From IMG/VR virus record IMGVR_UViG_3300050821_002957, positions 1-15,191 of that record: a stretch of DNA of 15,191 nt, one strand, 5' to 3'. The notes under the pieces were generated by a model, which had not been told where the DNA came from, searched no databases, and saw nothing but the letters and a program-made list of their open reading frames with translations. The translations under genes and the position numbers were made by a program. Source of the stretch: a virus. Below are positions 8,493-9,156 of the stretch, piece by piece; within the stretch, counting starts at the first letter, position 1; every line of letters starts with the position of its first letter.

Positions 8493-9156
8493 ATGCCCAT
8501 CGTAGAAATAAGAGCCGCCGAAGGTGGTCTCGACGCAAAGCTGTTAGTAGATGATCAATTCACGATCTATCTAAAGCTGGCAGAGCGGAGGGGTCTTTGA
8601 GGTTGAGATAACTGAAAAGACTGAAGGATTCGTCGCATTTGTTGTGAGTGGTGACAAAGCCGAAGCAACGTTTGCAAATGAAGCAGGCGGTCATCGCTGG
8701 CAAAGAGTCCCGCCAACCGAACGCAAAGGAAGAATTCAGACAAGCACAATCACGGTTGCTGTCTTGCCTGAACCCCAAGCCGAAGAATTCAAGATTGACG
8801 AAAAGGATCTTGAATGGAGCACAACCATCAGTCAAGGTAAAGGTGGACAGTCGGTCAACACAACTTACTCTTGTGTCATCCTAAAACACAAGCCATCTGG
8901 TGAAACCGTTCGTTGTCAAAATGAGCGATCACAGTTGCGAAACAAGCAGACCGCATTGCGAGTGCTGCGATCACGTCTTCTGGCGCAAAAAGAAAACGCA
9001 GAGCACGCCAGCGAGTCAAAACAACGCAAAGATCAAATTGGTTCGGGTCAGCGTGGAGACAAACGCCGCACGATTCGAGTGAAAGATGGTCAAGTCAATG
9101 ATCATGTGACTGGGCAAAAATGGTCCCTGAAGAAGTACTTGAATGGGGACTGGTAA
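8493..9156 (+). CDS. class-I peptide chain release factor homolog, RF1-type (PxT plus GGQ), lacking domain 1, in two frames joined by a prfB-like +1 frameshift
   Basis: Frame A, 8493-8597: MPIVEIRAAEGGLDAKLLVDDQFTIYLKLAERRGL, then UGA. Frame B from 8599: EVEITEKTEGFVAFVVSGDKAEATFANEAGGHRWQRVPPTERKGRIQTSTITVAVLPE...SQGKGGQSVNTTYSCVILKHKPSGETVRCQNERSQLRNKQTALRVL...GSGQRGDKRRTIRVKDGQVNDH, stop 9154-9156. Joined, the two parts line up without gaps on E. coli RF1 from LEIRAG(T)GG through GGHRVQRVPATE..GRIHTS and SGAGGQHVNTT...ERSQHKNK...[23 protein letters not shown]. GAGGA RBS 8 nt before ATG 8493. Confidence 0.75.
8587..8601 (+). promoter_or_regulatory. programmed +1 ribosomal frameshift site (internal SD GGAGGGG, CUU UGA G)
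   Basis: GGAGGGG-T-CTT-TGA-G. E. coli prfB has AGGGGG-TAT-CTT-TGA-C. A slip from CUU to UUU by P-site tRNA-Leu puts the ribosome in the frame that continues the RF alignment (...AERRGL | EVEIT... against RF1 ...AEARRWRVEIM...). Confidence 0.6.

Follow-up and report, generated by a model that had tools for sequence, protein, structure and literature searches.

The gene for release factor 2 (RF2), prfB, has until now been the only gene known to use a +1 frameshift at a CUU-stop site, and it is the textbook example of translational autoregulation. All CUU-stop +1 entries in RECODE are prfB (PMC10274946), and prfB is the only release factor listed in a survey of frameshifted prokaryotic genes (PMC3711429). 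Across 8,164 genomes, the stop codon at the prfB site is TGA in 98.6%, TAA in 1.4% and TAG in none, a distribution that is read as a mark of autoregulation (PMC12421855). For prfA, the gene for release factor 1 (RF1), a 2025 survey of 12,753 bacterial genomes saw no evident programmed frameshift (PMC12421855). Here, we describe a gene at positions 8493-9156 (plus strand) of a 15,191-nt stretch of DNA from what we term a huge phage (IMGVR_UViG_3300050821_002957; "the window" hereafter means this whole stretch). The gene encodes an RF1-like factor without domain 1, which we call short RF1, in two overlapping frames that meet at a cassette of the prfB kind. The same device is found at the same codon in more than 100 related genes, where it evolved independently of prfB.

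Release factors are also known from viruses. Expression of an eRF1-like factor in Mimivirus and Megavirus needs one frameshift and one readthrough, which has been interpreted as autoregulation in the bacterial style (Jeudy et al. 2012, PMC3521657). Huge phages encode RF1 and RF2 among their translation genes (Al-Shayeb et al. 2020, PMC7162821), and RF1 is part of the "code change modules" of the TGA-recoded Jade phages (Borges et al. preprint, 10.1101/2021.08.26.457843). The word "frameshift" is absent from the main texts of the latter two papers, and we found no truncated form of a release factor described in the available parts of either. A survey of release-factor evolution mentions neither phages nor the short-RF1 clade (PMC6514570). 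An earlier reading of the window from its letters alone (the original prediction) presented the rewiring that it proposed as not known to have been described; we found no description of the short-RF1 family or its recoding in the open-access literature, although absence there is not proof.

An RF1-derived factor in two overlapping frames

The gene opens with a short open reading frame (ORF), ORF0, that translates as MPIVEIRAAEGG...LAERRGL* and continues in the +1 frame to give a fused protein of 220 amino acids (coordinates in Table 1). The ORF0 product supplies the first strand and helix alpha5 of release-factor domain 2, with a GG-x-D tip that corresponds to G116/E119 of Thermus thermophilus RF1. 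It is 57-85% identical to relatives in this frame, and the N-termini of the family begin at the Met equivalent to the ORF0 ATG. The +1 frame covers the remainder of domain 2, domain 3 with its GGQ motif, and domain 4. Positions 8586-8600 read CGG AGG GGU CUU UGA in frame 0, and the frames are joined at CUU, the slippery codon for the P site, with UGA as the stop in the A site; from there, the product carries on in the +1 frame. The site motif GGAGGNNNCTTTRR occurs once in the window, compared to 0.01 occurrences expected by chance.

What kind of protein is encoded? Profile searches across both frames, proposed as a check in the original prediction, matched the fused protein to Pfam PCRF (PF03462; residues 3-88, 74.2 bits, cutoff 24) over only the last 92 of 194 profile positions and to RF-1 (PF00472; residues 98-204, 104.1 bits, cutoff 35). 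The NCBIfam models rank it with prfA (226 bits) above prfB (144), PrfH (80) and ArfB (32), and all of these scores fall under the family cutoffs. The two RF1 models, NF001859 (226 bits, cutoff 400) and TIGR00019 (219 bits, cutoff 423), align over profile positions 107-330 of 347. The best sequence matches among solved structures are the RF1 proteins of T. maritima and T. thermophilus (E ~1e-47). The alignment with RF1 is unbroken over the junction (...aerrgLEveitek... against ...AERKGWNLEVAEIHE...), which is the RRGL/EVEITEK junction that had been predicted. Every sequence detail given for a domain-1-less RF1-type factor read from two frames was correct.

The elements by which RF1 reads stop codons are largely kept. 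The tripeptide is of the PxT type, in the context HRWQRVPPTERKGRIQTS, and the equivalents of Q181 and T194 are retained (Q70 and T83). When aligned with the RF1 of structure 4v4r, the window protein has Asp at the E119 position and Gln at the H193 position. The first Pro and third Thr of PxT and the equivalents of Q181 and T194 are conserved in most members of a 39-sequence family alignment. The GGQ motif is invariant across these 39 sequences and is present in 82/82 non-identical relatives from phage collections.

An AlphaFold2 model built from the same alignment has a mean predicted local distance difference test (pLDDT) score of 84, which reaches 93 over residues 31-40 at the junction. The shift point lies in a loop between the helix of residues 13-32 and the strand of residues 36-43. 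In Foldseek, the model matches ribosome-bound RF1 with a template modelling (TM) score of 0.90 and a root-mean-square deviation of 2.1 A, compared to a TM score of 0.69 for PrfH (9mor_A). Domain 1 (about 105 residues) and the C-terminal helix are absent. The fused protein is an RF1-derived stand-alone class-I release factor consisting of domains 2-4.

Membership of the described families was considered and rejected in each case. The protein is not a canonical RF1 equivalog, as it lacks domain 1 and scores under the NCBIfam cutoffs. It is not RF2, given that the tripeptide is PPT rather than SPF and that TIGR00020 (144 bits, cutoff 370) scores below both prfA and its own cutoff. PrfH was set aside because TIGR03072 stays under its cutoff (79.6 bits, cutoff 166.65), the TM score is lower than for RF1, and there is no RtcB partner. 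ArfB was set aside because NF006718 is also under its cutoff (31.8 bits, cutoff 100) and matches residues 97-132 only, whereas the codon-reading domain 2/4 is present in full.

The shift site across the family

Is the interruption of the gene real? An independent assembly in ENA (ERZ27253678, 404 kb; locus L102) matches the window at 99.96% identity over 13.8 kb, and its copy of the gene is interrupted in exactly the same way, which answers the concern of the original prediction about an indel. The closest protein relatives (82-84% identity, e.g. P0003) start with "...SGGVF" in the +1 frame, the string that results when GGAGGGGTCTTT is read with a one-base offset. The site is therefore not an indel, because the same interruption is found in an independent assembly and in diverged relatives, complete chromosomes among them. 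Gene callers and NCBI list only the +1 ORF (170 amino acids in the window, and 188 in Archangium as a "PCRF domain-containing protein"; "peptide chain release factor-like protein" is also in use), as might be expected of an assembly error, a pseudogene or separate pieces with the +1 ORF starting at GTG 8644. However, the interruption recurs in L102 and in 131 diverged genes with an invariant CTT-stop, ORF0 is conserved as a frame-0 protein right up to the shift site, and a product starting at 8644 would be without helix alpha5 and two strands of the codon-reading domain. We regard an artefact or a dead gene as almost certainly the wrong explanation.

To define the family, we took RF1-like proteins of ~220 amino acids starting (M)xIVEIRAAEGG from a protein search, in which entries were either full-length or started at residue ~36. 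A profile from the 39-member alignment gave 316 hits in IMG/VR, of which the best 80 were kept, and 19 more were added through the site pattern. It gave at least 133 hits in one-genome-per-species bacterial genomes (GTDB), of which the best 80 were again kept. The genes of the relatives were parsed by local tblastn. The proportions that follow describe the best-scoring 80 per collection and are not population estimates.

We found 131 non-identical genes with a +1 shift, 59 on contigs from phage collections (IMG/VR, INPHARED, the window and its twin assembly) that reach 619 kb, and 72 in bacterial genomes. The shift falls at codon 35/36 and is +1 in all 131. The codon before the stop is CTT in 131/131, whereas CTT accounts for only 16% (phage) and 5% (bacterial) of Leu codons elsewhere in ORF0. 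The stop itself is TGA in 93 genes (71%), TAG in 36 (27%) and TAA in 2 (2%), and the base after it is C in 104, G in 23, A in 3 and T in 1. GGAGG stands at -11 to -7 (first stop base = 0), leaving a 3-nt spacer before CUU, exactly in 83/131 genes and as a sequence resembling a Shine-Dalgarno (SD) element in 109/131. Even LR745208.1, with a protein only 46% identical to that of the window, has the identical cGGAGGGGTCTTTGAc site at the same codon. This conservation at synonymous positions, among proteins 45-85% identical, is strong evidence that the cassette is used, and the same layout in 131 genes supports the predicted need for a prfB-style +1 shift at SD-CUU-UGA.

The conserved feature is CUU followed by a poorly terminated stop (UGA or UAG, hardly UAA) in a poor context (C or G, hardly U). 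Which of the two stops is used changes readily: it flips between UGA and UAG among nearest neighbours, such as L122 and L130, with 97% protein identity, and across phage and bacterial relatives the reading tripeptide showed no correlation with the stop. Only 9/131 genes have an ATG in the +1 frame within 14 codons of the shift site, which argues against re-initiation. There was no excess of flanking RNA structure around the shift sites (mean z about -0.1).

How do relatives without the shift express the gene? Of 82 unique genes from phage collections, the frameshift is present in 64 and in-frame stops in 13, and the remaining 5 run without interruption. In all, 15 unshifted relatives (L015, L018, L038, L002, L064, L065, L072, L080, L059, L068, L044, L050, L058, L164 and L166) contain 18 TGA and 2 TAG codons in frame, one or two per gene and all within codons 33-47. 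Three of these genes have the stop exactly at shift codon 36, about position 3100 in the locus (L015 TAT-TAG, L018 CTA-TGA and L038 CTC-TGA). Since six-frame ORF coverage on 6-kb loci was uninformative about the genetic code, it was replaced by stop counts in called genes and a census of TGG and TGA. Genuine Trp codons in these genes are TGG in 26/26 cases, even in loci of 24-35% G+C. The next base is C after 14/20 of the in-frame stops, and 13 of these read CTN. This pattern looks more like gene-specific programmed readthrough gates than genome-wide reassignment of TGA to Trp. If the in-frame stops are gates, almost all members would be gated by a stop codon close to the 5' end. The in-frame relatives L185 (RRG-L-D; CGA AGA GGT CTC GAC) and L009 (RRG-F-E; GGT TTT GAG) look at this place like losses of one T or the C from CTTTGA, and L185 has moreover lost both the slippery CTT and the SD.

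A further release-factor gene came to light in cultured P. syringae phages of ~95-100 kb (Pseudomonas phages phiPsa374, phiPsa347, phiPsa397, psageK4 and relatives). It contains an RF-1 domain and lies at about 2.0-2.6 kb of each record. In these matches (H102-H112), tblastn runs across two coding sequences, labelled "peptide chain release factor 1" and "hypothetical protein", and the gene might be another split or recoded release-factor-like gene.

Hosts and genomic surroundings

Myxococcota account for most of the bacterial hits. Among the carriers are Minicystis rosea DSM 24000 and Archangium gephyra, each with a complete chromosome, and Pyxidicoccus fallax DSM 14698, with a draft genome. 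All three are cultured, and A. gephyra, P. fallax and M. rosea (L113, L121 and L134) have a CUU-UAG or CUU-UGA gene. Some contigs in "bacterial" metagenome-assembled genomes may be mis-binned phage; the two complete chromosomes and the isolate draft are exempt. The Myxococcota loci have no tRNA arrays, and we found neither a conserved neighbouring gene nor RtcB in 56 bacterial loci. One bacterial locus that we inspected looks chromosomal, with an extracytoplasmic function sigma factor, a HAD hydrolase and peptidases nearby.

About half of the phage loci lie inside tRNA arrays, with up to 25 tRNAs in 6.6 kb. The commonest neighbour in 74 phage loci is an HNH endonuclease (8 loci), and shared neighbours form only small clade-specific clusters. 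Several of the huge-phage genomes of Al-Shayeb et al. (LR74xxxx/LR75xxxx) hold family members in deposited LR7 records that are unannotated. There was no close member among the cultured phages of INPHARED, and comparison of the locus with 50,697 phage records at the DNA level gave only tRNA matches.

Other translation-related genes stand near the release-factor gene in some phage loci. A gene for transfer-messenger RNA (tmRNA) adjoins the frameshifted gene in L016 (2206-2564) and in L026 (3666-4017), and in L026 24 tRNAs are packed into 6.6 kb. An ORF of 208 amino acids with a KxDG motif lies directly 5' of the release-factor gene (about 2161-2787) in L006, L007, L008, L012, L013, L021 and L025. 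The L012 copy matches PHROG 548 (phrog_548), "RNA ligase", with an E value of 1e-10; it has no match in Pfam and no sequence match in the PDB, and the RNA ligase call comes from PHROGs only. The pairing of this ligase-like ORF with the release-factor gene recalls the PrfH-RtcB pair; neither this ORF nor the HNH neighbour is RtcB. tRNA-like genes of 75-78 nt in L021 (501-578), L053 (1445-1519) and L006 (974-1051) are not class II and have a 9-nt loop, C(T/C)TAAGCAA. ARAGORN labels them "taag" or Leu(AAG), and AAG is a perfect match to the slippery CUU in the same loci; a tie to frameshift efficiency is possible. Quadruplet decoding by the "four-base anticodon" tRNAs of L021 and L053 was considered and is probably not at work, as the AAG tRNA of L006 has the same 9-nt loop.

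The release-factor gene sits in a tRNA island, as predicted, with tRNA-Lys(CUU) and tRNA-Arg(CCU) on its flanks and nine tRNA genes in the window (Table 1). A promoter match upstream of tRNA-Lys might drive a joint transcript of the tRNA and the release-factor gene; three such matches were found in the window against 1.9 expected, which is weak evidence. The presence of both an HNH and a GIY-YIG gene, about 1 kb apart, indicates that homing endonucleases are interspersed in the island. Neither of the two small Cys-rich ORFs, one of which runs antisense over the last 62 nt of the release-factor gene, has a match in Pfam. The tRNA-Ile(UAU) call is doubtful, or the tRNA is an unusual one. The genes around the island (NADAR, HD phosphohydrolase, YqeY and P-loop kinase) would fit a role in RNA or tRNA repair or modification, and no RtcB was detected among the scanned window ORFs or the Pfam hits of the L102 genes. 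L102 positions 1-2709 do not align with window positions 1-1352, save for a 74-nt patch of 93% identity; ahead of window position 1353, these near-identical phages differ by the replacement of a segment.

Table 1. Positions of the features of the window
Feature	Position	Strand	Description
Likely ribosome-binding site AGAGGA	8478-8483	+	9 nt ahead of the ORF0 ATG; read from the sequence
ORF0	8493-8600	+	35 codons MPIVEIRAAEGGLDAKLLVDDQFTIYLKLAERRGL plus UGA; ATG at 8493, CUU at 8595-8597, UGA at 8598-8600
+1 frameshift cassette	8587-8601	+	GGAGG 8587-8591, spacer GGU 8592-8594, CUU 8595-8597, UGA 8598-8600, G 8601
+1 frame continuation	8599-9156	+	185 codons (8599-9153) plus TAA (9154-9156); reads EVEITEK...GGQ...NGDW
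Pro-Pro-Thr (PPT) tripeptide	8710-8718	+	CCG CCA ACC; RF1-type PxT codon reader, residues 73-75
GGQ motif	8842-8850	+	GGT GGA CAG; peptidyl-tRNA hydrolysis motif, residues 117-119
tRNA-Lys(CUU)	8395-8469	+	ARAGORN; Rfam tRNA 73.8 bits; immediately 5' of the release-factor gene
tRNA-Arg(CCU)	9377-9452	+	ARAGORN and Rfam; 3' of the release-factor gene
Sigma-70-like promoter match	8345-8374	+	TTGACA-18-TATGAT, 11/12; consensus match only; 5' of tRNA-Lys(CUU)
Cys-rich ORF	8222-8404	+	Small, CxxC...CxxC, zinc-ribbon-like; ends within tRNA-Lys(CUU)
Cys-rich ORF	9095-9271	-	Small, CxxC...CxxC, zinc-ribbon-like
Promoter-like match	9340-9312	-	TTGACA-17-TAAGAT; just upstream of the minus-strand Cys-rich ORF
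HNH endonuclease ORF	7484-7999	-	171 amino acids; PHROG 2255, E 2e-26; 3' end overlaps tRNA-Ile(GAU) by about 68 nt
tRNA-Ile(GAU)	7478-7551	+	
GIY-YIG/NUMOD3 endonuclease gene	~6027-6662		Upstream of the HNH ORF
tRNA-Ile(UAU)	3664-3756		ARAGORN, 93 nt; Rfam under gathering score; overlaps the start of the HD-domain ORF
NADAR	2594-3112		
HD phosphohydrolase	3716-4327		
YqeY (GatB-like)	4263-4808		
P-loop kinase AAA_33	9984-10478		

Proposed mechanism, alternatives and known systems

What would such a gene be for? We propose, with a probability of roughly 70%, that it specifies an auxiliary RF1-type factor that would be made through the +1 shift, in amounts that rise when termination is slow, and that would act as an additional terminator at UAA and UAG, independently of RF3. 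The protein retains what RF1 requires for reading a stop codon and for hydrolysing peptidyl-tRNA. After translation of 35 codons, the P site would hold tRNA-Leu on the CUU and the A site a stop that is terminated poorly (UGA-G in the window), while GGAGG, 3 nt behind the CUU, would pull on the tail of the 16S rRNA. If release is slow, the tRNA-Leu may re-pair from CUU to UUU, one base on, so that GAG is read and the full factor is made (...RRGL-EVEITEK..., with the predicted junction peptide LAERRGLEVEITEK). If release is fast, only a 35-residue peptide would result. Output would then rise whenever termination becomes limiting, in response to RF2 activity at UGA sites and to RF1 activity at UAG sites; at UAG sites, it would report on RF1 plus the factor itself. 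TGA is a normal stop of this phage (15/41 genes), and therefore RF2 should compete at the window site. From its motifs, we infer that the product is specific for UAA and UAG and does not read UGA. Reading UGA would be self-defeating, because relatives with the same reading loop have in-frame TGA in their own genes.

The original prediction went further and described a rewiring in which RF2 governs the synthesis of a factor that should not itself read UGA. For the window, with a UGA site in a phage that uses TGA as a normal stop, this wiring is still the straightforward reading. Across the family it is not fixed, given the 27% of genes with UAG and the flips between proteins of 97% identity, and where UAG occupies the shift site the factor could regulate its own synthesis.

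Several points weigh against our proposal of an auxiliary factor. The shifting, its efficiency and its response to release-factor levels are argued by analogy with prfB, and the codon specificity is argued from motifs only, with H193 replaced by Gln in the window protein and a tripeptide that varies in the family (PPT, PPN, SPT, PET or a deleted loop). No SD is recognisable in 22/131 members, and the +4 base in the window is G, while the family prefers C and avoids T, the strongest context. For a factor confined to UAA and UAG, the UGA sites that form the majority would provide no negative feedback, and the selective logic is not obvious. Finally, RF1 and RF2 truncated by domain 1 reportedly retain codon-dependent release in vitro, with RF3 interaction and recycling lost, but a release factor of this shape may not work in vivo.

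Could the gene regulate itself in the strict sense? Negative feedback would arise if the altered reading head (PPT or PPN, Asp for E119 and Gln for H193) had broadened or become omnipotent and read whichever stop the site holds, UGA included. Every other CUU-stop +1 site in RECODE belongs to an autoregulatory prfB (PMC10274946). Moreover, flips between UGA and UAG in near-identical genes are easily explained if both are read, and the tripeptide and adjoining residues depart from canonical RF1. A few members (e.g. L027, L042 and L066) have SPT, which under the tripeptide rule is said to be permissive at both purine positions. We nevertheless find true autoregulation unlikely: most members are RF1-like at the first Pro, the third Thr and the equivalents of Q181 and T194, the tripeptide and the shift-site stop are uncorrelated, in-frame TGA is conserved in the own ORF of relatives with the same loop, and UAA, which an omnipotent factor would also read, is nearly absent (2/131). 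The product might instead rescue stalled or damaged ribosomes by stop-independent release, in the manner of PrfH or ArfB, with the shift site as a stall sensor that responds to queued ribosomes, for instance when nucleases attack tRNA or rRNA in a conflict between phage and host. Such a role would suit the domain-1-less architecture common to PrfH, the weak match to that family in sequence and fold, the frequent placement of phage copies in tRNA arrays with an adjoining tmRNA gene in two loci, and, as a hint, the RNA ligase gene directly before the release-factor gene in 7 phage loci. However, the match is far under the PrfH cutoff, the codon-reading elements of RF1, which are absent from PrfH, are conserved, neither RtcB nor another conserved partner is found in the 56 bacterial loci or in the window, and the fold is much nearer to RF1, all of which makes rescue a rather poor bet. 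The suggestion in the original prediction of a role in infection or against tRNA damage did not hold as a requirement, since Myxococcota chromosomes have the same gene and site without a tRNA island or a conserved partner.

A switch of genetic code is a further conceivable role for the shift. If termination at UGA were lowered late in infection, by a suppressor tRNA or by inhibition of RF2, the CUU-UGA shift would boost an RF1-type factor for UAA and UAG. The place of RF1 in the code change modules of the Jade phages and the in-frame TGA of relatives are in keeping with such a switch. It is nonetheless highly improbable: TGA is a normal stop in the window phage and there is no suppressor among the nine local tRNAs, a UGA suppressor would run frame 0 into nearby stops (TGA GGT TGA), and neither the UAG versions nor the chromosomal copies of Myxococcota fit.

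Beyond the auxiliary factor proposed for the window, a broader reading may be considered. Myxococcota and huge phages may share a third lineage of bacterial-type class-I release factors that is nearly always stop-gated within the first 50 codons, usually by a convergent CUU-stop +1 shift and in other members by readthrough of in-frame UGA or UAG. The gate would act as a sensor of termination capacity, so that a back-up is made only when RF2 or RF1 fails. We put this forward tentatively, as an idea that is somewhat more likely to fail than to hold. If true, huge phages could keep terminating translation while the host machinery is depleted or attacked, and this would be the first case in which RF2 activity controls the synthesis of a factor of other specificity.

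These genes provide a natural experiment in which the mechanistic needs of the shift (CUU, SD spacing, a weak stop and no U at +4) can be set against its regulatory logic (the identity of the stop). They also expose a widespread and mis-annotated release-factor paralogue, of which databases list only the +1 ORF of 170-188 amino acids, and, for huge phages, they extend the translation toolkit by a termination factor whose synthesis is probably regulated. Several carriers are myxobacteria in culture, which opens the question to direct tests.

How does short RF1 relate to the systems already described? It shares with prfB an internal SD, a 3-nt spacer, a P-site CUU, an A-site stop, a preference for C after the stop (at the level of the family, with G in the window), no need for RNA structure, and a class-I release factor as the product. 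In both, repeated losses of the element have apparently occurred in some lineages, here as the in-frame RRG-L-D and RRG-F-E forms. However, prfB encodes RF2 and the present gene an RF1-like protein, and the stops at the short-RF1 site are not matched to the expected specificity of the product. The E. coli prfB site is at codon 25/26 in domain 1 (PMC12421855), whereas the short-RF1 site is at codon 35/36, in a domain 2 loop between a helix and a strand. Because domain 1 is absent here, the site must have an independent, convergent origin; the prediction of a prfB recoding signal was thus right about its anatomy, although the two sites are not homologous.

The other relatives differ in the protein or in its control. 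Canonical RF1 is the best match in sequence and structure, with PxT, the Q and T third-base readers, GGQ and domains 2-4 in common, but short RF1 lacks domain 1 and the C-terminal helix and scores 226 bits against the cutoff of 400. PrfH (RF-H, with RtcB2) is likewise a class-I paralogue of about 200 amino acids without domain 1 and with a patchy distribution in bacteria; its reading head is degenerate, it is paired with RtcB and its substrate is the damaged ribosome, whereas short RF1 keeps the RF1 reading elements and has no partner. Among the release factors of huge and recoded phages, short-RF1 members are present in several genomes of Al-Shayeb et al. In concept, the nearest parallel is the eRF1-type factor of Mimivirus and Megavirus, also a viral class-I release factor that needs recoding at internal stops (PMC3521657), although it is of the eukaryotic/archaeal type, belongs to viruses of amoebae, and is unrelated in sequence and site. 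Altogether, short RF1 brings a known mechanism and a known protein superfamily together in a new, convergent and differently wired combination.

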